Source: Shigella phage ESh3
Strand: one strand, 5' to 3'
Length of the DNA: 39,180 nt
Sequence record: ON528717
The number at the start of each line of letters is the position of its first letter. Positions within the stretch are counted from its first letter, which is position 1. The position numbers were made by a program, and so were the translations under genes. The notes beneath the pieces were generated by a model that was not told the origin of the DNA, searched no databases, and saw only the letters and a list, made by a program, of their open reading frames with translations. Below are positions 7,808 through 39,180 of the stretch, piece by piece.

Positions 7808-8506
7808 ATGGCTAAGAAGATTTTCACCTCTGCGCTTGGCACTGCTGAACCTTACGCTTACCTCTCTAAGCCGGACTACGGTAACGAAGAGCGTGGCTTT
7901 GGGAACCCTCGCGGTGTCTACAAAGTTGACCTGACTATTCCCAACAAAGACCCGCGCTGCCAGCGTATGGTCGATGAAATCGTGAAGTGCCACGAAGAGG
8001 CTTATGCTGCTGCCGTTGAGGAATACGAAGCTAACCCGCCTGCTGTAGCTCGTGGTAAGAAACCGCTGAAACCATATGAAGGCGACATGCCGTTCTTCGA
8101 TAACGGTGACGGCACGACTACCTTTAAGTTCAAATGCTACGCGTCTTTCCAAGACAAGAAAACCAAAGAGACCAAGCACATCAATCTGGTTGTGGTTGAC
8201 TCCAAGGGCAAGAAGATGGAAGACGTTCCTATTATCGGTGGTGGCTCTAAACTGAAAGTCAAATACTCTCTGGTTCCCTACAAGTGGAACACGGCTGTAG
8301 GTGCGAGCGTTAAGCTGCAACTGGAATCCGTGATGCTGGTCGAACTGGCTACCTTTGGCGGTGGTGAAGACGATTGGGCTGACGAAGTTGAAGAGAACGG
8401 CTATGTTGCCTCTGGTTCTGCCAAAGCGAGCAAACCACGCGACGAAGAAAGCTGGGACGAAGACGACGAAGGCTCTTACGAAGAAGACTCAGACGGAGAC
8501 TTCTAA
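7808..8506 (+). CDS. 2.5: gene 2.5 single-stranded DNA-binding protein
   Basis: 232 aa MAKKIFTSALGTAEPYAYLSKPDYGNEERGFGNPRGVYKVDL..., acidic C-terminal tail ending ...EEDSDGDF. Confidence 0.95.
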   Translation: MAKKIFTSALGTAEPYAYLSKPDYGNEERGFGNPRGVYKVDLTIPNKDPRCQRMVDEIVKCHEEAYAAAVEEYEANPPAVARGKKPLKPYEGDMPFFDNGDGTTTFKFKCYASFQDKKTKETKHINLVVVDSKGKKMEDVPIIGGGSKLKVKYSLVPYKWNTAVGASVKLQLESVMLVELATFGGGEDDWADEVEENGYVASGSAKASKPRDEESWDEDDEGSYEEDSDGDF

Positions 8507-8962
8507 GTGGCTGGCGCATACGCTGCGCGTGGTATCAGAAAGGTCGGGACATTCCGTTCCGGCCTAGAAGATAAGGTCTCTAAGCAGCTAGAGGGTAAGG
8601 GCATTAAGTTCGACTATGAACTGTGGAAAATCCCTTACGTTGTCCCTGCGAGCAACCATGTGTATACTCCAGACTTCCTGCTGCCTAACGGAATCTTTAT
8701 TGAAACCAAAGGTTTATGGGAGAGTGACGACCGAAAGAAACACTTACTGATTCGCGAACAGTTTCCCGAACTGGACATCCGTCTGGTGTTCTCAAGCTCA
8801 CGCACTAAGCTGTATAAAGGGTCTCCTACCAGTTATGGTGAGTGGTGTGAGAAGCACGGTATTCTGTTTGCTGACAAATTAATTCCTGTAGAATGGCTCA
8901 AAGAACCCAAAAAGGAGGTGCCATTTGACAAGCTGAAACAATCGAAGGGAGGAAAGAAATAA
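8507..8962 (+). CDS. 3: gene 3 endonuclease I (Holliday-junction resolvase), apparent GTG start
   Basis: 151 aa MAGAYAARGIRKVGTFRSGLEDKVSKQLEGKGIKF...PDFLLPNGIFIETKGLWESDDRKKHLLIREQ; starts directly after 2.5 stop. Confidence 0.9.
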   Translation: MAGAYAARGIRKVGTFRSGLEDKVSKQLEGKGIKFDYELWKIPYVVPASNHVYTPDFLLPNGIFIETKGLWESDDRKKHLLIREQFPELDIRLVFSSSRTKLYKGSPTSYGEWCEKHGILFADKLIPVEWLKEPKKEVPFDKLKQSKGGKK

Positions 8963-14370: not shown

Positions 14371-14670
14371 ATGGCTATGACAAAGAAATTTAAAGTGTCC
14401 TTCGACGTTACCGCCAAGATGTCGTCTGACGTTCAGGCAATCTTGGAGAAAGATATGCTGCATTTGTGCAAGCAGGTAGGCTCAGGTGCGATTGTTCCCA
14501 ATGGCAAACAGAAGGAAATGATTGTCCAGTTCCTGACACATGGTATGGAAGGCCTGATGACATTCGTAGTACGGACAGCATTTCGTGAGGCCATCAAGGA
14601 CATGCACGAAGAGTATTCCGATAAGGATTCTTTCAAACTCTCTCCCGCGACTGTACGGGAGGTGTTCTAA
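14371..14670 (+). CDS. 5.5: gene 5.5 (in T7, H-NS-binding protein)
   Basis: 99 aa MAMTKKFKVSFDVTAKMSSDVQAILEKDMLHLCKQVGSGAIVPNGKQKEMIVQF... Confidence 0.9.
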   Translation: MAMTKKFKVSFDVTAKMSSDVQAILEKDMLHLCKQVGSGAIVPNGKQKEMIVQFLTHGMEGLMTFVVRTAFREAIKDMHEEYSDKDSFKLSPATVREVF

Positions 14671-14786
14671 TGACTATCCGACGTATCAAGAATAAAAAGG
14701 AGTGCGACCACTCTTTCATAGTCAAGGGGGTCGTTGGTTTTTGCTGCCGAGAGTGTATCAAATGCGGATATTTTGAGGTGATGTGA
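14670..14786 (+). CDS. 38-codon Cys-rich micro-ORF (candidate zinc-ribbon peptide), coupled between 5.5 and 5.7
   Basis: MTIRRIKNKKECDHSFIVKGVVGFCCRECIKCGYFEVM; ATG overlaps 5.5 stop (TAATG) and its stop overlaps 5.7 start (TGATG). Confidence 0.5.
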   Translation: MTIRRIKNKKECDHSFIVKGVVGFCCRECIKCGYFEVM

Positions 14787-30800: not shown

Positions 30801-31807
30801 CTTGGACGAAGCTACTCAATGGGACTACTAACTACCTTCTGGATGCTGCCCGACAAGGGATGCTTGGAGACGTGATTAGTGCCACTCTCTCAGGGAAGAC
30901 GACTAGATGGGAGAAGGAAGGCTTCCTGCGTGGTGCTTCTGTAACTCCTGAGCAGATGAAGGGAATCAGGGCACTCATTAAGGAACACATGGTACGTGGT
31001 GAGGACGGTAAGTATACTGTTAAGGATAAGCACGCGTTCTCTATGGACCCAAGAGCTATGGACTTGTGGCGACTGGCTGACAAGGTAGCCGATGAGGCTA
31101 TGCTGAGGCCACATAAGGTTTCCTTACAGGATTCCCATGCGTTTGGTGCGTTAGGGAAGATGGTAATGCAGTTCAAGTCGTTTACTATCAAATCACTGAA
31201 CTCTAAGTTCCTCCGTACCTTCTACGATGGTTACAAGAATAACCGAGCGATTGATGCCGCACTGAGTGGTATCATCTCTATGGGTCTTGCCGGAGGCTAC
31301 TACGCAATGGCTGCACACGTCAAAGCGTATGGAATGCCGAAGGAGAAACGTAAGGAGTACTTAGAGCGAGCATTGGACCCGACCATGATTGCTCACGCTT
31401 CTCTGTCTCGTAGTTCTCAATTGGGTGCACCCTTGGCTATGGCTGACCTAGTTGGTGGCCTGTTCGGGGTTGAGTCCTCAAAGATGGCCCGTTCTACGAT
31501 TCTGCCTAAAGACACCATGAAGGAGCGTGACCCTAATAAGCCTTATACCTCGTGGGAGGTAATGGGTAATATGGGGTCTAACATTCTGGAACAGATGCCT
31601 TCGGCTGGCTTCGTGGCTAACGTGGGGGCTTCCCTACTAAATACCGCTGGTGTGGTTAATGCTCCCAACAAAGCTACTGAGCAGGACTTCATGACTGGTC
31701 TTATGAACTCCACAAAAGAGTTAGTACCGAACGACCCATTGACGCAACAGCTTGTGTTGAAGATTTATGAGGCGAACGGTGTTAACCTGAGGGAGCGTAA
31801 GAAATAA
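27851..31807 (+). CDS. 16: gene 16 internal virion (core) protein D with N-terminal lytic transglycosylase domain
   Basis: 1318 aa; N-terminal SLT-like motif (VAWTESRF...GPLGMMQFTKATAKALGL...AYNQGEG). Confidence 0.97.
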   Translation: MDKYDKNVPSDYDGLFQKAADANGVSYDLLRKVAWTESRFVPTAKSKTGPLGMMQFTKATAKALGLRVTDGPDDDRLNPELAINAAAKHLAGLVGKFDGDELKAALAYNQGEGRLGNPQLEAYSKGDFASISDEGRNYLRNLLDVAKSPMAGQLEAFGGITPKGKGIPAEVGLAGIGHKQKVTQELPESTSFDVKGIEQEAPAKPFAKDFWETHGETLDEYNSRSTFFGFKNAAEAELSNSVAGMAFRAGRLDNGFDVFKDTITPTRWNSHVWTPEELEKIRTEVKNPAYLNVVTGGSPENLDALIKLANENFEADSRAAEAGLGAKLSAGVIGAGVDPLSYVPMVGVTGKGFKLINKSLVVGAESAALNVASEGLRTSVAGGDADYAGASLGGFMFGAGMSIISDTIAAGLKRNKPEAEFDNEFIGPMMRMEARETARNANSTDLSRVNTDSMKFESEHNGIPYADLPTEKGAVVLHDGSVLSASNPINPKTLKEFSEVDPEKAARGIKLAGFTEIGLKTLGSDDADIRRVAIDLVRSPTGMQSGSSGKYGSTASDIFEKLRGTDQRTYNDLYKAMSDAMKDPEFSTGGAKMSREEARYTIERRVALAIENPELQKSLTPNERIVMDIVKQHYDTKRELMENPAVFGNTKAVSIFPESRHKGTYVPHVYDKYAKALKIQRYGAEGLQEGIARSWMCSYDLRPAVKARIDEALKEMHGVEEVTHDMVYKYAMDKAYGISHSDRFTNSSIIEENIEGLVGIENNSFLEARNLFDSDLAITMPDGEQFSVNDLRDFSMFRIMPAYDRRINGDIAIMGSTGKTTKELKDEILALKAKAEGDGKKTGEVHALMDTVKILTGRARRNQDTVWETSLRSINDLGFFAKNAYMGAQNITEIAGMIATGNVRALGHGIPILRDTLYKSKPVSAKELKELHSALFGKEVDQLIRPQRADIVQRLREATDTGPVVANIVGTLKYSTQELAARSPWTKLLNGTTNYLLDAARQGMLGDVISATLSGKTTRWEKEGFLRGASVTPEQMKGIRALIKEHMVRGEDGKYTVKDKHAFSMDPRAMDLWRLADKVADEAMLRPHKVSLQDSHAFGALGKMVMQFKSFTIKSLNSKFLRTFYDGYKNNRAIDAALSGIISMGLAGGYYAMAAHVKAYGMPKEKRKEYLERALDPTMIAHASLSRSSQLGAPLAMADLVGGLFGVESSKMARSTILPKDTMKERDPNKPYTSWEVMGNMGSNILEQMPSAGFVANVGASLLNTAGVVNAPNKATEQDFMTGLMNSTKELVPNDPLTQQLVLKIYEANGVNLRERKK

Positions 31808-31827
31808 TACGACTCACTATAGGGAGA
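31805..31827 (+). promoter_or_regulatory. phage RNAP promoter phi17 (class III)
   Basis: TAATACGACTCACTATAGGGAGA exact, overlaps gene 16 stop. Confidence 0.9.
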
Positions 31828-31879
31828 GGTGAAAGAATCTTCTCCCTGTAGTCTCTTAGATTTACTTTAAGGAGGTCAA

Positions 31880-33709
31880 ATGGCTAACGTAATTAAAACC
31901 GTTTTGACTTACCCGTTAGATGGTTCCAATCGTGATTTTAATATCCCGTTTGAGTATCTAGCCCGTAAGTTCGTAGTGGTAACTCTTATCGGTGTAGACC
32001 GCAAGGTCCTTACGATTAATACAGACTATCGTTTTGCTACGCGTACTACAATCTCACTGACCAAGGCTTGGGGTCCAGCCGATGGCTATACTCTCATAGA
32101 GCTACGTCGAGTAACCTCCACGACCGACCGCTTGGTTGACTTTACTGACGGCTCAATCCTCCGTGCGTATGACCTTAACGTTGCTCAGATTCAAACAATG
32201 CACGTAGCAGAAGAAGCTCGTGACCTAACTGCTGATACCATTGGTGTCAATAACGACGGTCACTTGGATGCCCGTGGTCGTCGCATCGTGAACGTAGCGG
32301 ATGGTATTGAACCAGGCGATGCAATAACTCTAGGTCAAGTCACGCGGTGGAATGATTCTGCCCTGAACTCAAAGAACGCCGCAAAGGTCTCTGAGACAAA
32401 CGCTAAGGATTCCGAGAACAAGGCGAAAGCGTCTGAGACCAATGCAAAGAACTCTGAGAACCTAGCTCACGATTGGGCGCAGAAGTCCGAGGACTCTCCG
32501 GTGACTGGCTCTGAATATTCCGCTTACCATTATTCCCGTAAGTCGTCAGCTAGTGCTAATGCGGCTGCTTCGAGTGCTGCTGCAAGTCTGTCCTCACAGA
32601 ACGCTGCGAAGGTCTCCGAGGATAACGCCAAGGTCTCAGAGACAAACGCTAAGGCTTCTGAGGTTTCCGCTAAGGATGATGCTGATAGAGCAGAACGTGA
32701 GGCAGATAAGCTGGGTAACATGAATGCCCTTGCTGAGGCAATAGAGACAGTACAAGATGGTTATGTGCTCTGGAAGAACCACGTAAGGACAAAGAGTGGA
32801 AACGTGTTTGCGGAACGGTGGTTTGATGTAGAACCCGCATTTAACGAGTATTATGCTTCGAGTTTGCTGATTGCGACTTATCGTATTAGCGGTATTGAGA
32901 GACTTACTACAGCACTGTATACTGAGGGTAATTGGGGGCAGGGCGCTACCGAGCGCGGGACGATTGCCATACTTCGCAGGAATGGTGGTAACGAACTCAC
33001 TGGTGGCGCCTATTTCCACTTTTACCCAAATGGCTCTTTCTACTCTAATACCCACTCAGCGATGGGATGGCAAGGTGGTTGGGAGGACGTAGCAAGAGAA
33101 CCTCATCGCGCACCATTCAGAGTAAACGATGTTGTTAATAACAATGGCGGGTTTGTTCCTGCCTTAACTTGTTACAGCGTGTCCACTGGGGGGTATCCTC
33201 TTCGCTTCACAACTGGTATCATTTCCAATGGAACAGGGAATTGGCCTGAGGCTGTAATTGCACGCATGGACGGAGATAATAACCATTCGGCGACTTACCA
33301 GTGCCAGATGGGAGGCGGGATTTACGCGTGGATGAGATCATATGATGGGTCTGTTCGCGGGATCTCGTTCGCCGTAGAACCACAGTCAGATGCGCGCCTT
33401 AAGACTGTTCATGGTCGGTTGGATACCAAACTACCACTAAGTAACATTGAGTCTATGAACTTTGTTGAGTTTACCTTTAACTACGACAAGAAGGAAGCAA
33501 TACGCCGTGGAGTCATTGCACAGGAACTACAGAAGATTGACCCAGAGTACGTCCACAAAAAGGTGTATAAGATCGGTGGTGGGGAGGAAATGGAAATCCT
33601 TCAGTTAGACCTTACACCAATGACTCTGGATGCACTAGCCGCAATCCAAGAGTTGTCGAATCAAGTTAAAGAACTCAAGGCAGAACTTAAACAAATCAAG
33701 GGAGACTAA
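31880..33709 (+). CDS. 17: gene 17 tail fibre, mosaic: T7-like N-terminal attachment domain, different distal domain, C-terminal intramolecular chaperone
   Basis: 609 aa; N-terminus MANVIKTVLTYPLDGSNRDFNIPFEYLARKFVVVTLIGVDRKV... matches T7 gp17, homology lost after about residue 140. Confidence 0.92.
   Translation: MANVIKTVLTYPLDGSNRDFNIPFEYLARKFVVVTLIGVDRKVLTINTDYRFATRTTISLTKAWGPADGYTLIELRRVTSTTDRLVDFTDGSILRAYDLNVAQIQTMHVAEEARDLTADTIGVNNDGHLDARGRRIVNVADGIEPGDAITLGQVTRWNDSALNSKNAAKVSETNAKDSENKAKASETNAKNSENLAHDWAQKSEDSPVTGSEYSAYHYSRKSSASANAAASSAAASLSSQNAAKVSEDNAKVSETNAKASEVSAKDDADRAEREADKLGNMNALAEAIETVQDGYVLWKNHVRTKSGNVFAERWFDVEPAFNEYYASSLLIATYRISGIERLTTALYTEGNWGQGATERGTIAILRRNGGNELTGGAYFHFYPNGSFYSNTHSAMGWQGGWEDVAREPHRAPFRVNDVVNNNGGFVPALTCYSVSTGGYPLRFTTGIISNGTGNWPEAVIARMDGDNNHSATYQCQMGGGIYAWMRSYDGSVRGISFAVEPQSDARLKTVHGRLDTKLPLSNIESMNFVEFTFNYDKKEAIRRGVIAQELQKIDPEYVHKKVYKIGGGEEMEILQLDLTPMTLDALAAIQELSNQVKELKAELKQIKGD
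32370..32690 (+). repeat. imperfect tandem 21-nt (heptad) repeats encoding the (A/S)ETNAK(x) coiled-coil shaft of the tail fibre
   Basis: Two blocks: AAKVSETNAKDSENKAKASETNAKNSEN and AAKVSEDNAKVSETNAKASEVSAKDDAD, visible at nucleotide level (gtctctgagacaaacgctaagg twice). Confidence 0.6.
33386..33709 (+). other. C-terminal intramolecular chaperone / peptidase S74-type self-cleaving domain of the tail fibre (predicted cleavage at Ser503)
   Basis: SDARLK motif (Ser503, Lys508) followed by ...LSNIESMNFVEF..., IRRGVIAQELQKIDPEYV and a C-terminal helical segment QELSNQVKELKAELKQIKGD. Confidence 0.6.
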
Positions 33710-33746
33710 CTAATAGACCACGGATGGTCAACATAGGGAGGACACA

Positions 33747-36533: not shown

Positions 36534-36614
36534 TTTATTCACTGAGACTGCATAGGGATGCACTATAGACCACGGATGGTAAGTTCTTTAAGTTACTGAA
36601 AAGACACAATAAAT

Positions 36615-36637
36615 TAATACGACTCACTATAGGGAGA
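36615..36637 (+). promoter_or_regulatory. phage RNAP promoter phiOR (right-end replication/packaging promoter)
   Basis: TAATACGACTCACTATAGGGAGA exact. Confidence 0.9.
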
Positions 36638-36792
36638 GGAGGGACGAAAGGTTACTATATAGATACTGAATGAATACTTATAGAGTGCATAAAGTATGCA
36701 TATAGGTGTACCTAACGTGACCTCTAAGAATGGTGATTATATTGTTATTAATATCACCTCTACTTAAAGACCAACATAAAGGAGGGAGACTC

Positions 36793-36942
36793 ATGTTCCG
36801 CTTATTGTTGACCTTGTTGCGGCATAGAGTCACCTACCGATTTCTTGTGGTACTTTGTGCTGCCCTTGGGTACGCATCTCTTACTGGAGACCTCAGTTCA
36901 CTGGAGTCTGCCGTTTGCTCTATACTCACTTGTAGCGATTAG
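36793..36942 (+). CDS. 19.5: gene 19.5, small hydrophobic protein
   Basis: 49 aa MFRLLLTLLRHRVTYRFLVVLCAALGYASLTGDLSSLESAVCSILTCSD; RBS aaggaggga. Confidence 0.75.
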   Translation: MFRLLLTLLRHRVTYRFLVVLCAALGYASLTGDLSSLESAVCSILTCSD

Positions 36943-36959
36943 GGTCTTCCTGACCGACT

Positions 36960-37181
36960 GATGGCTCACCGAGGGATTCAGCGGTATGATTGCATCACGC
37001 CACTTCATCCCTATAGAGTCAAGTCCTAAGGTATATCCACAAAGAGCCTCTAATGGTCTATCCTAAGGTCTATACCTAAAGATAGACCATCCTATCAGTG
37101 GAACCTAAAGAGGGTCTCAGAGAGGGCCTAAGGAGTCCATAGAGGGTCCTTTAAAATATACCATAAAAATCTGAGTGACTA
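36960..37181 (+). repeat. right-end non-coding region with CCTAAAG/CCTAAGG-type short repeats preceding the terminal repeat (packaging / concatemer-processing region)
   Basis: cctaaggtatatcc..cctaaggtctatacctaaagatagaccatcc..aacctaaagagggtc..gggcctaaggagtcc; matches recalled T7 right end. Confidence 0.45.
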
Positions 37182-37347
37182 TCTCACAGTGTACGGACCT
37201 AAAGTTCCCCCATAGGGGTACCTAAAGCCCAGCCAATCACCTTGAGTCAACTTTCAGTTGACCTTGAGGGTTCCCTAGGGTTGGGGTTGGTCCCTTGGGG
37301 TTTACCTTGAGTGTCTCTTCTTGTCCCTATCTGTTCAGTCTCCTAAA
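37182..37347 (+). repeat. direct terminal repeat of the linear genome (single collapsed copy); physical genome ends lie here
   Basis: Begins TCTCACAGTGTACGGACCTAAAGTTCCCCCATAGGGG and ends ..CTGTTCAGTCTCCTAAA, colinear with the recalled 160-bp T7 terminal repeat. Confidence 0.6.
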
Positions 37348-37348
37348 G

Positions 37349-37512
37349 TATCCTCCTAAAGTCACCTCCTAAAGTCATTCCTACCGTCTACAACCTAAAG
37401 ACTACACCTAAAGACCCATCGAGTCAACGCCTATCTTAAAGTATCTTCTAAAGACCATCCTAAAGACCATTCTAAAGACCATCCTAAAGACCATCCTAAA
37501 GCCTATTCCTAC
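37349..37512 (+). repeat. left-end short tandem repeat region (CCTAAAG heptamers, then a 12-bp tandem array of about 6 units)
   Basis: gtatcttctaaa gaccatcctaaa gaccattctaaa gaccatcctaaa gaccatcctaaa gcctattcctac at 37441-37512. Confidence 0.6.
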
Positions 37513-37562
37513 AGACGCCTTGTTGTTATCTATAAAGAGATAATCTTCAATCATTGTCTCTT

Positions 37563-37585
37563 TAATACGACTCACTATAAGGAGA
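37563..37585 (+). promoter_or_regulatory. phage RNAP promoter phiOL (left end)
   Basis: TAATACGACTCACTATAAGGAGA. Confidence 0.8.
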
Positions 37586-37634
37586 CTACTTAAAGATACC
37601 TTAAAAGAGAAATTAAAGAATTTTAAAAAGAGTA

Positions 37635-37663
37635 TTGACTTAAAGAGTCCTAGGGATTACTAT
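37635..37663 (+). promoter_or_regulatory. host sigma70 early promoter A1
   Basis: -35 TTGACT, 17-bp spacer, -10 TACTAT. Confidence 0.7.
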
Positions 37664-37761
37664 TCATCTCGTCAACGGGACAACGGCCTTAAAGCCACTC
37701 CCTGAGATACCGGGGTCAACCGGATAAGTAGACAGCCTGTAAGTCGCACGAAAAACAGGTA

Positions 37762-37791
37762 TTGACAACACGAAATAACATGCAGTAAGAT
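37762..37791 (+). promoter_or_regulatory. host sigma70 early promoter A2
   Basis: -35 TTGACA, 18-bp spacer, -10 TAAGAT. Confidence 0.75.
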
Positions 37792-37876
37792 ACACAACGT
37801 AGCGTCAACCGGACGCACGCAAGGTGTCTTCTAGGTGACTTAAGCGCACCACGGCACACAAAGTGAAACAAAACGG

Positions 37877-37905
37877 TTGACAACATGAAGTAAACACGGT
37901 ACGAT
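37877..37905 (+). promoter_or_regulatory. host sigma70 early promoter A3
   Basis: -35 TTGACA, 17-bp spacer, -10 TACGAT. Confidence 0.75.
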
Positions 37906-38044
37906 GTACCACAGCTACCACAGGGTAGCACATGAAACGACAGTGAGGCGCAACACTGAAAGGCGCTAGGGTCTAACGAAACCTGACCGACATGCTCTTT
38001 AACAATCTGGTAAATAGCTCTTGAGGTGCACGAATAGCGGATAA

Positions 38045-38081
38045 CTCAAGGGTATCGCAAGGTGCCCTTTATGATATTCAC
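38045..38081 (+). promoter_or_regulatory. RNase III site R0.3
   Basis: ctcaagggtatcgcaaggtgccctttatgatattcac hairpin upstream of gene 0.3. Confidence 0.5.
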
Positions 38082-38106
38082 TAATAACTGCACGAGGTAA
38101 CACAAG

Positions 38107-38448
38107 ATGGCTATGTCTAACATGACTTACAACAACGTTTTCGACCACGCTTACGAAATGCTGAAAGAAAACATCCGTTATGATGACATCCGCGACACTG
38201 ATGACATGCACGATGCTATTCATATGGCTGCCGATAGCGCAATCCCGCACTACTACGCTGATATTTTTAGCGTAATGGCAAGCGAGGGCATTGACCTTGA
38301 GTTCGAAGACTCTGGTCTTATGCCGGACACCAAGGACATAATCCGTATCCTGCAAGCTCGTATCTATGAGCAACTCACGATTGACCTCTGGGAAGACGCT
38401 GAGGACTTACTTAACGAGTACCTTGAGGAAGTCGAGGAAGAAGAGTAA
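38107..38448 (+). CDS. ocr: gene 0.3 Ocr, DNA-mimic anti-restriction protein (inhibits type I R-M; reported to inhibit BREX)
   Basis: 113 aa [77 protein letters not shown]..., acidic. Confidence 0.95.
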
Positions 38449-38603
38449 TGGCTAACAACAACACGCAATACGGTCTGACCGCTCAAACTGTACTGTTTTA
38501 TAGTGACATGGTGCGCTGTGGGTTTAACTGGTCGCTCGCAATGACACACCTTAAGGAACTGTACGAAAACAACAAGGCAATCGCTCTAGAATCTGCTGAG
38601 TGA
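38448..38603 (+). CDS. 0.4: gene 0.4 (in T7, inhibitor of FtsZ / cell division)
   Basis: 51 aa [51 protein letters not shown]; ATG overlaps ocr stop. Confidence 0.85.
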   Translation: MANNNTQYGLTAQTVLFYSDMVRCGFNWSLAMTHLKELYENNKAIALESAE

Positions 38604-38607
38604 TAGG

Positions 38608-38650
38608 CTCAAGGTCGCTCCTAACGAGTGGCCTTTATGATTATCACTTA
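38608..38650 (+). promoter_or_regulatory. RNase III-type site (R0.5), copy a of a 43-bp direct repeat
   Basis: ctcaaggtcgctcctaacgagtggcctttatgattatcactt. Confidence 0.6.
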
Positions 38651-38671
38651 ACTTGCAGTAGGACTAACATC

Positions 38672-38872
38672 ATGAGTAAACTTTTGGCAACCTCCAAAAT
38701 CAAAGGCCAATGCACTGTGACACTGCGTGAGTATTACCACGGGTCTATGGGAAGCACCTACGTTGTACGATACGGTAAACAGGTAACACATTGGGTAAAC
38801 CCGATTTTGGCGCAAGAAGAGTATCAAGCCTGTGTGATACACCAAGCAACATGTGCAGGCTGGAATGATTGA
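38672..38872 (+). CDS. 66-aa early accessory ORF of unknown function, bracketed by the duplicated R site
   Basis: MSKLLATSKIKGQCTVTLREYYHGSMGSTYVVRYGKQVTHWVNPILAQEEYQACVIHQATCAGWND; track ORF starts at 38600, ATG 38672 chosen because it follows R site copy a. Confidence 0.6.
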   Translation: MSKLLATSKIKGQCTVTLREYYHGSMGSTYVVRYGKQVTHWVNPILAQEEYQACVIHQATCAGWND

Positions 38873-38924
38873 CAACACTATTTGCACTAACTGGACATAG
38901 CCTTCGAGTCTACCCAGTGATAAA

Positions 38925-38967
38925 CTCAAGGTCGCTCCTAGCGAGTGGCCTTTATGATTATCACTTT
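38925..38967 (+). promoter_or_regulatory. RNase III-type site, copy b of the 43-bp direct repeat (42/43 identical to copy a)
   Basis: ctcaaggtcgctcctagcgagtggcctttatgattatcactt; upstream gtgata also shared with copy a. Confidence 0.6.
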
Positions 38968-38988
38968 TACTTATGGGAGTAATACACA

Positions 38989-39117
38989 ATGCTTACTATC
39001 GGTCTACTCACCGCTCTAGGTCTAGCTGTAGGCGCATCCTTTGGGAAGTCTTTGGGTGTCGCTGTAGGCGCTTACTTGGTCGCTTGTATCATCACGGGAG
39101 CACTACGCAAATGCTGA
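38989..39117 (+). CDS. 0.5: small hydrophobic membrane peptide at the gene 0.5 position
   Basis: 42 aa MLTIGLLTALGLAVGASFGKSLGVAVGAYLVACIITGALRKC; RBS gggag 9 nt upstream; Gly/Ala-rich TM-like. Confidence 0.6.
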   Translation: MLTIGLLTALGLAVGASFGKSLGVAVGAYLVACIITGALRKC

Positions 39118-39128
39118 AACAGCACGGT

Positions 39129-39180
39129 ATGAAACACTACGTTATGCCCATCCACACTTCCAACGGGGCAACTGTATGCA
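39129..39180 (+). CDS. 0.6: gene 0.6A, N-terminal part (continues at window position 1)
   Basis: ATG 39129 then MKHYVMPIHTSNGATVC, open to the end of the window and in frame with 1..107. Confidence 0.6.
   Translation, partial: MKHYVMPIHTSNGATVC

Follow-up and report, generated by a model that had tools for sequence, protein, structure and literature searches.

Gene 17 of Shigella phage ESh3 (ON528717; genus Teseptimavirus) encodes a mosaic tail fibre in which a T7 attachment end is joined to a T5-like tip with a built-in chaperone, a design that is real and already well known. Its domain architecture, the conservation of the catalytic motif, the chaperone fold, the homologies and the cassette boundaries were established computationally in a window of 39,180 nucleotides, the whole stretch analysed, to whose + strand all coordinates below refer. 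We consider it very probable that gp17 is the precursor of six trimeric T7-type fibres, that it is assembled from four interchangeable modules (adaptor, shaft, tip and chaperone), and that an S74 domain assists its folding and cleavage; the receptor of its swapped tip is probably an O-polysaccharide.

The gene 17 locus, adaptor and shaft

In the list of open reading frames, gene 17 (31880..33709, stop codon included) codes for a 609-aa tail fibre precursor of 66.9 kDa, and its product matches the annotated 'non-contractile tail fiber protein' of ESh3 (P0001) with 100% identity. Gene 16 and the holin gene 17.5 flank it, and it lies behind a phi17 promoter, as in the T7 annotation. This promoter, the class III equivalent of phi17 that drives gene 17, is an exact match of 23 nt to TAATACGACTCACTATAGGGAGA (31805..31827) with a chance expectation of zero, and in T7 the annotated phi17 promoter has the same placement. 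A Shine-Dalgarno AAGGAGG could be read from the sequence at 31869..31875, with the ATG 4 nt downstream. Gene 17 is followed immediately by the holin gene, without a separate chaperone gene. The paper on the ESh phages contains neither a tail-fibre analysis nor a host range for ESh3.

The first-pass annotation had assigned the first ~140 residues to a T7 gp17-type adaptor, and this assignment was borne out. Phage_T7_tail (PF03906) matches residues 1-155 with E 1.1e-66 (223.8 bits against a Pfam cut-off of 25.2), and in the phmmer alignment residues 1-140 differ from the solved T7 gp17 (7boz) by 3 substitutions. Matches of ESh3 gp17 to the solved T7 gp17 entries 7boz, 8e4g and 8dsp ranged from E 1e-87 to 1e-103. 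At the DNA level, identity to T7 and ESh1 is 91-93% over nt 1-420 of gene 17, and nucleotide similarity is undetectable past nt 420. On the basis of PF03906 and the T7 gp17 alignment, the adaptor common to the Teseptimavirus backbone was placed at aa 1-140 (31880..32299), with the Pfam domain extending to aa 155. The segment from aa 1 to about 150 would essentially be the T7 gp17 N-terminal domain, which would dock the fibre on the tail and maintain its compatibility with the Teseptimavirus tail.

The adaptor is followed by an Ala/Ser-rich shaft of SETNAK-type heptad repeats (aa 141-282; 32300..32725), delimited by its tandem arrays and composition. The heptad-repeat shaft proposed earlier is real, as tandem arrays with a 21-nt (7-aa) period were found at 32381-32461 and 32609-32654; residues 151-289 contain 21.6% Ala and 16.5% Ser. 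The shaft probably forms a trimeric coiled coil. Up to gene nt 847 it is 93% nucleotide-identical to its counterpart in Yersinia phage vB_YenP_WW2. The fibre of WW2 is chaperone-less, and downstream of it lies a 128-aa ORF first suspected to encode a trans-acting assembly chaperone; this ORF gave no Pfam or PHROG match, and the suggestion was dropped. Everything beyond the adaptor had also been described as unlike T7 gp17. That description stood for the tip, where similarity to T7 is absent, but not for the shaft, through which weak protein similarity to T7 gp17 runs on to about residue 304-316 (phmmer, BLASTP).

The shaft ends at a conserved junction motif, ADRAEREADKLGN (aa 268-280; 32681..32719), which marks the boundary with the tip cassette and was defined by comparison of 7 fibres. 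ADRA (268-271), EADKL (274-278) and N280 of the motif are invariant in these 7 fibres, which bear at least 4 different tips, and the motif is part of the region weakly similar to T7 gp17. The segment from aa about 151 to 282 would thus be a rod of Ala/Ser-rich heptad repeats closing with ADRAEREADKLGN. Overall, ESh3 and T7 have near-identical adaptors and agree in promoter, gene order and junction motif; their shafts are weakly similar.

The tip and the C-terminal chaperone domain

Homology and an AlphaFold2 model place a beta-rich receptor-binding domain of the LtfA/pb1 family of T5-like side fibres at aa 302-502 (32783..33385). The distal region had been described as rich in Gly, Asn and Trp; the enrichment is real, though mild (13.1% Gly, 7.5% Asn and 3.3% Trp in residues 290-502). 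A search for the source of this region, suggested in the first-pass annotation, led to two groups of proteins. Residues 302-606 share 39% identity (E 4e-63) with aa 692-996 of LtfA/pb1 of Tequintavirus STP-SP2, with identity evenly distributed across the tip, so that the alignment covers tip and chaperone rather than the chaperone alone. Tip and chaperone together are 77% identical to T7-like Salmonella phage fibres (CECAV_058, JSS1). A query with the tip only retrieved 115 phage records, mostly T5-like, 33 of them at ≥80% coverage, and a BFVD search matched DT57C LtfA over 351 alignment columns. When the distal fragment alone was used against a large database, it returned one close fragment and otherwise short prophage 'tail fiber domain-containing' proteins that matched the chaperone. 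Mentions of JSS1 in the literature concern an anti-defence kinase, and a Kenyan Salmonella phage paper merely cites the chaperone paper.

The AlphaFold2 model of the tip is beta-rich, with pLDDT of 83-91 at aa 315-384 dropping to 52-59 at aa 385-424. Foldseek comparison with the bullet domain of T5 pb1 (4uw7) was weak (probability 0.63, poor TM-score), the model being a monomer of an expected intertwined trimer. Fold-search matches to the tip were weak and in part spurious (beta-barrels, lectins), and a fold assignment beyond LtfA homology was rejected. By sequence, T5 pb1 (4UW7/4UW8) was not found in the PDB with either a protein or a profile query; the entries matched were DT57C LtfA, MyRF, a cyanophage fibre and S16 gp37, all via the chaperone only. 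Pfam matches to gp37_trimer (PF20744) and gp37_C (PF12604), both present in T7 gp17, were absent from ESh3 gp17. The third module (aa about 302-502) would be read as a beta-rich tip without enzymatic function that is homologous to the outer end of the T5-like LtfA/pb1 L-shaped side fibres.

An enzymatic tailspike (depolymerase) in place of a binding fibre would be a different reading of the same region. The precedent is K1F gp17 (endoNF), the S74 chaperone prototype, which like ESh3 gp17 is encoded between genes 16 and 17.5 and has the same outer modules, N-terminal PF03906 and C-terminal PF13884, here flanking an enzyme; in addition, the homologue in Enterobacter phage NJ2 is annotated 'tail spike protein'. 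Between these modules K1F carries ~700 aa of endosialidase catalytic domains, and ESh3 a coiled-coil shaft with a small, non-enzymatic tip. The distal region of ESh3, however, is only about 200 aa long and has no enzymatic or beta-helix Pfam domain, depolymerase folds were absent from the fold-search matches, and no enzymatic activity is known for pb1, the one side fibre of this family with a solved structure (PMC4690869). K1F is also distant in other respects, as its adaptor shares only 39% identity with that of ESh3 and its genus is Kayfunavirus, not Teseptimavirus. We therefore regard a depolymerase as very improbable and retain the binding tip.

The C-terminus is formed by an intramolecular chaperone of the Peptidase_S74 family (aa 503-609, 12.19 kDa; 33386..33706) with a long terminal helix at aa 578-608. 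The earlier proposal that S503-D-A-R-L-K508 opens a C-terminal segment of ~107 aa agrees with what we found, the motif being present and the segment measuring 107 aa. The segment had been taken for an endosialidase-type S74 chaperone, and the HMM search suggested for this claim returned PF13884 at residues 503-558 (E 1.6e-11, 44.7 bits against a gathering score of 22; 48.9 bits with the fragment alone). A sequence profile also matched DT57C LtfA (8hqz_d; E 1.9e-20) and MyRF (2.9e-12). The AlphaFold2 model has a mean pLDDT of 76, and Foldseek matched its chaperone to 7dc3 (probability 1.0) and to the endoNF chaperone 3gw6 (0.98). The C-terminal domain has a mixed alpha/beta fold with the long helix at its end, as in S74-type domains. 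T7 gp17, as the first-pass annotation stated, is 553 aa long and lacks an S74 domain, ending instead in a gp37_trimer plus gp37_C tip.

The predicted autocleavage motif (33386..33403), with Q502/S503 as the scissile bond, was assigned by conservation and by equivalence to T5 pb1. In a set of 36 homologues whose distal regions share 23% to 91% identity with ESh3, S503, D504, K508, G544, I546, A547 and Q548 are invariant (36/36), and the S74 domain is more conserved than the adjoining tip. The domain opens with the catalytic pair, a Ser and a Lys at a distance of five residues (S-D-x-x-x-K), in a motif shared with the T5-like LtfA/pb1 fibres (T5 pb1, 4UW7/4UW8; DT57C LtfA, 8HQZ; STP-SP2 ltf). 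In T5 pb1, the equivalents of S503 and K508 are Ser1264 and Lys1269, cleavage occurs at Thr1263/Ser1264 and is abolished by S1264A, and O-antigen binding is masked as long as the chaperone stays attached (PMC4690869). Upstream of the motif, R462 (29/36) and D466 (34/36) are conserved. Their spacing to the serine differs from that of Arg1250 and Asp1239 in T5, and a positional mapping of this T5 sensor onto ESh3 was rejected as unsupported.

By analogy with these systems, gp17 would cleave itself, and cleavage would depend on trimer folding. Following the precedents of K1F endosialidase and T5 pb1, the three C-terminal chaperone domains would meet first via their terminal helices, and the associated chaperones would then template trimerisation and folding of the tip. 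In the correctly folded trimer, Ser503, activated by Lys508, would cut the Q502-S503 bond. The predicted products are a released fragment of 12.2 kDa and a mature fibre of 54.7 kDa with its tip unmasked. The ESh3 fibre and T5-like LtfA/pb1 would in this way use the same fold-cleave-unmask mechanism, in proteins of different standing: LtfA/pb1 is a siphovirus side fibre of 1000-1400 aa with another proximal part and acts as an accessory adhesin, whereas gp17 is the only fibre of a podovirus.

The S74 domain could instead be a degenerate remnant that aids folding without being released, or does neither, so that the mature fibre retains its C-terminus. The T5-type upstream folding-sensor residues were indeed not identified in ESh3. 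Against this stand the invariance of the motif Ser, Asp and Lys in all 36 homologues, a domain that outconserves the tip next to it, a Pfam score of twice the gathering cut-off and a chaperone fold that is intact in the model. In T5 pb1, moreover, the uncleaved chaperone blocks receptor binding (PMC4690869). We consider a degenerate domain improbable and favour an active, self-releasing chaperone.

An S74 domain on a T7-like fibre is not unusual, because ESh1, Bas102 and the prototype K1F gp17 all carry one. Fibres of 609-624 aa with both PF03906 and PF13884 were found in the Salmonella phages vB_CECAV_058, JSS1 and JSS2 (Berlinvirus), the Shigella phages CT02 and ESh1, Enterobacter phage NJ2 and Escherichia phage MeretOppenheim Bas102, and the adaptor-plus-S74 layout is common to dozens of metagenomic T7-like fibres. 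For Bas102, of the BASEL collection, the fibre chaperone has been noted explicitly in print (PMC11990801).

Cassette replacement in ESh3 relative to ESh1

ESh3 and ESh1 are siblings with 96% identity, and direct comparison of the two genomes bore out the proposed swap of the receptor-binding module as a clean replacement from codon 141 to the stop codon. By genome blastn, the replaced cassette comprises shaft, tip and chaperone and reaches just past the stop codon (32300..33715). This is the largest block of the ESh3 genome without a match to ESh1, and its flanks are 94-97% identical. Elsewhere the genomes are collinear at 94-97% identity, with the further exceptions of short stretches at 14413-14774, 37914-37939 and 38655-38896 and of weaker similarity (86%) at 38897-39180. 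The tips of ESh1 and Bas102 are unrelated to that of ESh3, with BLASTP alignment confined to residues 1-304.

Within gene 17, breakpoints fall at nt 420 and nt 819-847. The WW2-like match stops at gene nt 847 and the match to Salmonella phage CECAV_058 begins at nt 819, both at or just past ADRAEREADKLGN. CECAV_058 has the tip family in common with ESh3 and differs in adaptor subtype and shaft; a metagenomic relative shows the same pattern, with 76% identity in the adaptor and about 35% in the shaft. Among 28 homologues, the adaptor, the shaft and the tip-chaperone unit reassort independently, and tip and chaperone co-vary. Tip and chaperone would thus move as a single cassette, and in ESh3 this cassette, with a different shaft, would have taken the place of the corresponding part of an ESh1-type fibre. 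Recombination at conserved sequence in or near ADRAEREADKLGN is the likely route of exchange.

Such a chimera might also arise in assembly, if reads of two phages were mixed. Grounds for this are the UNVERIFIED flag on ESh1 in GenBank, the circular permutation of the assembled ESh genomes and the joint isolation of several T7-like phages. The reading frame is nevertheless intact, the breakpoints fall at conserved module borders, and nine independent clusters contain proteins of 609-610 aa that are 85-94% identical over their full length. A 609-aa fibre with 90% identity, in the same gene 16/17/17.5/18/18.5/19 context, is present in independent ENA and Logan contigs from two unrelated assemblies. 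On this last finding an assembly artefact was rejected; we give it next to no weight and retain a genuine cassette replacement.

A wider reading, which we hold tentatively and at a little under an even chance, is that the tip plus chaperone is a self-sufficient portable cassette and that ESh1 and ESh3 are a natural near-isogenic pair differing essentially only there. The cassette could cross between unrelated scaffolds, from T5-like or other siphovirus side fibres to T7-like gene 17, because it brings its own folding device. If this is true, the host ranges of ESh1 and ESh3 on Shigella serotypes would map O-antigen specificity to a 1.4-kb segment, and the pair would show that a short-tailed phage can have a non-enzymatic O-antigen binder as its sole adhesin.

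The receptor and the consequences of the swap

The receptor of ESh3 is probably an O-antigen. Homologous LtfA tips bind specific O-antigens, and a Shigella or related enterobacterial O-polysaccharide is therefore the most likely receptor, in which case the swap would retarget host range. T5 pb1 binds polymannose (PMC4690869), LtfA of DT57C and of DT571/2 recognise the specific O-antigens O22-like and O87 (PMC4728585), and the Teseptimavirus Bas102, with its chaperone-bearing fibre, depends on the O16 O-antigen (PMC11990801). The specificity itself is not transferable to ESh3, because even the closest tip relatives whose receptor is known share only about 15-40% identity with it. By comparison with homologues, the swap would have changed the receptor.

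The architecture would stand equally if the ligand of the tip were not an O-antigen but, for instance, LPS core or an outer-membrane protein; in that event the swap would alter the class of receptor and not serotype specificity. LPS core is the receptor of T7, T3 and many relatives (PMC11990801), identity between the ESh3 tip and T5-like LtfA tips is only about 37-39%, and phages of hosts as different as Salmonella, E. coli, Klebsiella, Enterobacter and Shigella carry homologous tips, so specificities clearly vary. On the other side, O-antigen is what the characterised side fibres of this family bind, Bas102, the only Teseptimavirus whose fibre bears a chaperone and whose receptor has been studied, requires it, and clinical Shigella hosts are smooth strains. 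A receptor of another class is thus rather unlikely, though it is the most serious of the alternatives, and an O-antigen remains the preferred reading.

Taken together, the analysis identifies what is predicted to determine the host range of a candidate therapeutic Shigella phage. The exact borders of its modules, at codon 141, at the junction ADRAEREADKLGN and at the stop codon, could serve to re-target T7-type phages, and tip-chaperone cassettes employed in this way need no separate assembly chaperone. ESh1 and ESh3 offer a ready natural experiment for mapping receptor specificity. For the family as a whole, the ESh3 fibre is one further example of modular tail-fibre exchange and of S74 fibre chaperones, and it leaves the established picture unchanged.

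Gene 17 of ESh3 and its T7-type adaptor and shaft

ESh3 (ON528717) is among four Teseptimavirus isolates of a Shigella phage-cocktail study, in which both a discussion of tail fibres and the host range of ESh3 are absent (PMC9686686). Its nearest genome in the phage collection is that of the sibling phage ESh1 (96% identical across the initial 25 kb), followed by T7 (~92%). Judged from window 1 and 36600-39180, ON528717 presents a T7-type genome in circularly permuted form: window position 1 corresponds to T7 coordinate 1691, and window 38897-39180 joins ESh1 8383-8649, just ahead of the point where window position 1 aligns on ESh1. Both physical ends of the genome and its terminal repeat must therefore be internal to the window, downstream of gene 19 (end 36533); the ON528717 coordinates differ from the packaged DNA layout.

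Gene 17 occupies 31880-33709 (+), where the 609-aa ORF exactly matched its description in the first-pass annotation, and its product is 100% identical to the ESh3 database entry 'non-contractile tail fiber protein'. As in T7, the gene is preceded by a perfect class III promoter (31805-31827, +) and a strong ribosome-binding site. Ten T7-type promoters were found on the + strand between window 4144 and 37585, six of them perfect 23-mers (16164, 19114, 20144, 24513, 31805 and 36615); none would be expected by chance in the window.

The Pfam family Phage_T7_tail matched gp17 residues 1-155 (E 1.1e-66), and residues 1-140 contain only three substitutions relative to the solved T7 gp17, bearing out the proposed T7-type adaptor of ~140 residues. 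At the DNA level, nt 1-420 of the gene were 91-93% identical to T7 and ESh1, and identity vanished beyond nt 420. One correction concerns the claim that the rest of the protein does not match T7: low-level protein similarity persisted along the shaft as far as about residue 304-316. The predicted heptad-repeat shaft was evident from 21-nt tandem arrays in its DNA (32381-32461 and 32609-32654) and from an Ala/Ser-rich composition (21.6% Ala, 16.5% Ser). T7 gp17 has 553 aa and carries gp37_trimer and gp37_C tip domains without an S74 domain.

The C-terminal S74 chaperone domain

The ~107-residue C-terminal segment had been proposed to be an intramolecular chaperone. Pfam Peptidase_S74 indeed matched residues 503-558 (E 1.6e-11), its 44.7 bits exceeding the gathering score of 22, and segment 503-609 comprises 107 aa (12.19 kDa). 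Only S503, D504, K508, G544, I546, A547, Q548 and one Leu of the terminal helix were unchanged throughout 36 aligned homologues that are 23% to 91% identical to ESh3 in the distal region. The family sequence profile retrieved DT57C LtfA (8hqz_d, E 1.9e-20) and the MyRF autocleavage domain (7dc3, E 2.9e-12), as well as a cyanophage fibre, S16 gp37 and, weakly, the phi29 gp12 autochaperone. An AlphaFold2 model of residues 285-609 (mean pLDDT 76) contained a mixed alpha/beta unit with a 31-residue helix at its end, and Foldseek matched this model to MyRF ICA (probability 1.0, TM 0.65-0.69) and the endoNF chaperone 3gw6 (probability 0.98). The chaperone call is based on four independent lines, namely HMM, conservation, sequence profile and fold. 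A 21-nt tandem repeat at window 33666-33705 encodes the final heptads of the chaperone helix (KELKAELKQIK), which is consistent with the trimeric coiled coil in which S74 domains end.

The architecture, motif, fold and cassette borders were established directly; from its homology to K1F endosialidase and T5 pb1, we infer that gp17 most likely also cleaves itself. The C-terminal domains would trimerise and template tip folding, after which Ser503, activated by Lys508, would cleave the Q502-S503 bond, releasing a 12.2-kDa chaperone to yield a 54.7-kDa mature fibre. T5 pb1 is cleaved between Thr1263 and Ser1264, which is blocked by S1264A; an arginine of the neighbouring chain ties cleavage to correct trimer folding, and uncleaved pb1 fails to compete for the O-antigen receptor (PMC4690869). 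There is no separate assembly chaperone gene directly after ESh3 gene 17, the next gene being the holin gene.

The receptor-binding tip and exchange of fibre modules

Residues 302-606 of gp17 aligned with residues 692-996 of LtfA/pb1 from Tequintavirus STP-SP2 (1027 aa; 39% identity, E 4e-63), with matches distributed evenly over tip and chaperone. In STP-SP2, ltf is followed downstream by the gene of another large protein, resembling the two-protein fibre (LtfA plus LtfB) of DT57C. A tip-only query (aa 300-502) returned 115 phage records, predominantly T5-like phages of 108-138 kb, with some siphoviruses of Drexlerviridae size and a handful of T7-like phages (CECAV_058, JSS1, JSS2, NJ2 and CT02). 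The best tip match (77% identical) was in Salmonella Berlinvirus phages. Predicted structures in BFVD agreed, with DT57C LtfA matched across 351 alignment columns; the modelled tip is only suggestive of a fold related to the T5 pb1 bullet domain. The distal region, described as rich in Gly, Asn and Trp, contained 13.1%, 7.5% and 3.3% of these residues, respectively (residues 290-502), and a Pfam search detected no enzymatic domain in gp17. Two precedents make an O-polysaccharide the probable receptor: O22-like and O87 antigens are recognised by LtfA of DT57C and DT571/2 (PMC4728585), and Bas102, a Teseptimavirus with a chaperone domain on its fibre, is O16 O-antigen-dependent (PMC11990801).

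Several database labels look erroneous: 'Enterococcus phage EFA-2' (H12/H138, MT350293.1) is a 40-kb T7-like genome ~90% identical to the ESh3 gene 17, which is of coliphage type; Brucella melitensis is given as the source of a T7-type tail fibre (P0037); and 'Campylobacter phage A148' (H70) is a 113-kb T5-like genome. Contamination or a mislabelled host is the probable cause.

ESh3 and ESh1 were collinear at 94-97% identity except at window 32300-33715, which runs from gene 17 codon 141 to six bases beyond the stop, 14413-14774 (360 nt), two short segments for which no match was reported (37914-37939 and 38655-38896), and 38897-39180, where similarity was weaker (86%). Within 14413-14774, gene 5.5 diverges at its end, and an additional Cys-rich ORF of 38 aa (MTIRRIKNKKECDHSFIVKGVVGFCCRECIKCGYFEVM; 14670-14786) lies between genes 5.5 and 5.7. 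This peptide is encoded by 26 T7-like phages of Pectobacterium, Cronobacter, Klebsiella, Citrobacter and others, mostly unannotated or under 'HNS binding protein'.

Gene 17 has two internal breakpoints. Its nt 1-847 were 93% identical to Yersinia phage vB_YenP_WW2, whose fibre has a different tip and is chaperone-less, and nt 819-1830 shared 82% identity with Salmonella phage CECAV_058. These two matches overlap at or just past the motif ADRAEREADKLGN (aa 268-280), in which ADRA, EADKL and N280 are invariant among seven fibres with differing tips. Across 28 full-length homologues, adaptor, shaft and tip-chaperone reassorted independently: P0011 has an ESh3-type tip and an unrelated shaft, and P0013, P0017 and P0020 have an ESh3-type shaft with a tip 33-37% identical. 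Tip and chaperone always co-varied, the chaperone being better conserved. The ESh1 comparison, the breakpoints and this reassortment together uphold the suggested swap of the receptor-binding module. An assembly artefact was rejected, as a 609-aa fibre with 90% identity is flanked by the same genes in independent ENA and Logan assemblies.

In WW2 (locus L002, 904-3035), the gene 17 annotation consists of two CDS (904-1047 and 1055-2638), pointing to a frameshift or sequencing error. The 128-aa ORF after this fibre had no match in Pfam or PHROG and might be a trans-acting assembly factor.

Tip-chaperone cassettes in T7-like phages

An adaptor combined with S74 is already the layout of the prototype, K1F gp17, in which endosialidase domains lie between PF03906 (residues 10-115) and PF13884 (residues 916-971), and both domains occurred in about a third of the best 120 database homologues. 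PF13884 is also present in gp17 of ESh1 (624 aa; L003 1472-3346) and Bas102 (BASEL phage MeretOppenheim, 622 aa; L004 2501-4369), whose tips are unrelated to that of ESh3; BLASTP similarity stops after residue 304, and these fibres, too, end in a Peptidase_S74 domain, with an SDRRLK motif. At least two unrelated tip-chaperone cassettes are therefore in use in Teseptimavirus. The Bas102 chaperone has already been mentioned in print (PMC11990801). The first-pass annotation was correct in observation and interpretation, for a feature that is well delimited and of known layout. According to the BASEL paper (PMC11990801), T5-like tips have been transferred horizontally, along with their chaperones, among Tequintavirus, Gordonclarkvirinae and Wifcevirus, and ESh3 and its Salmonella relatives widen this transfer to Studiervirinae.
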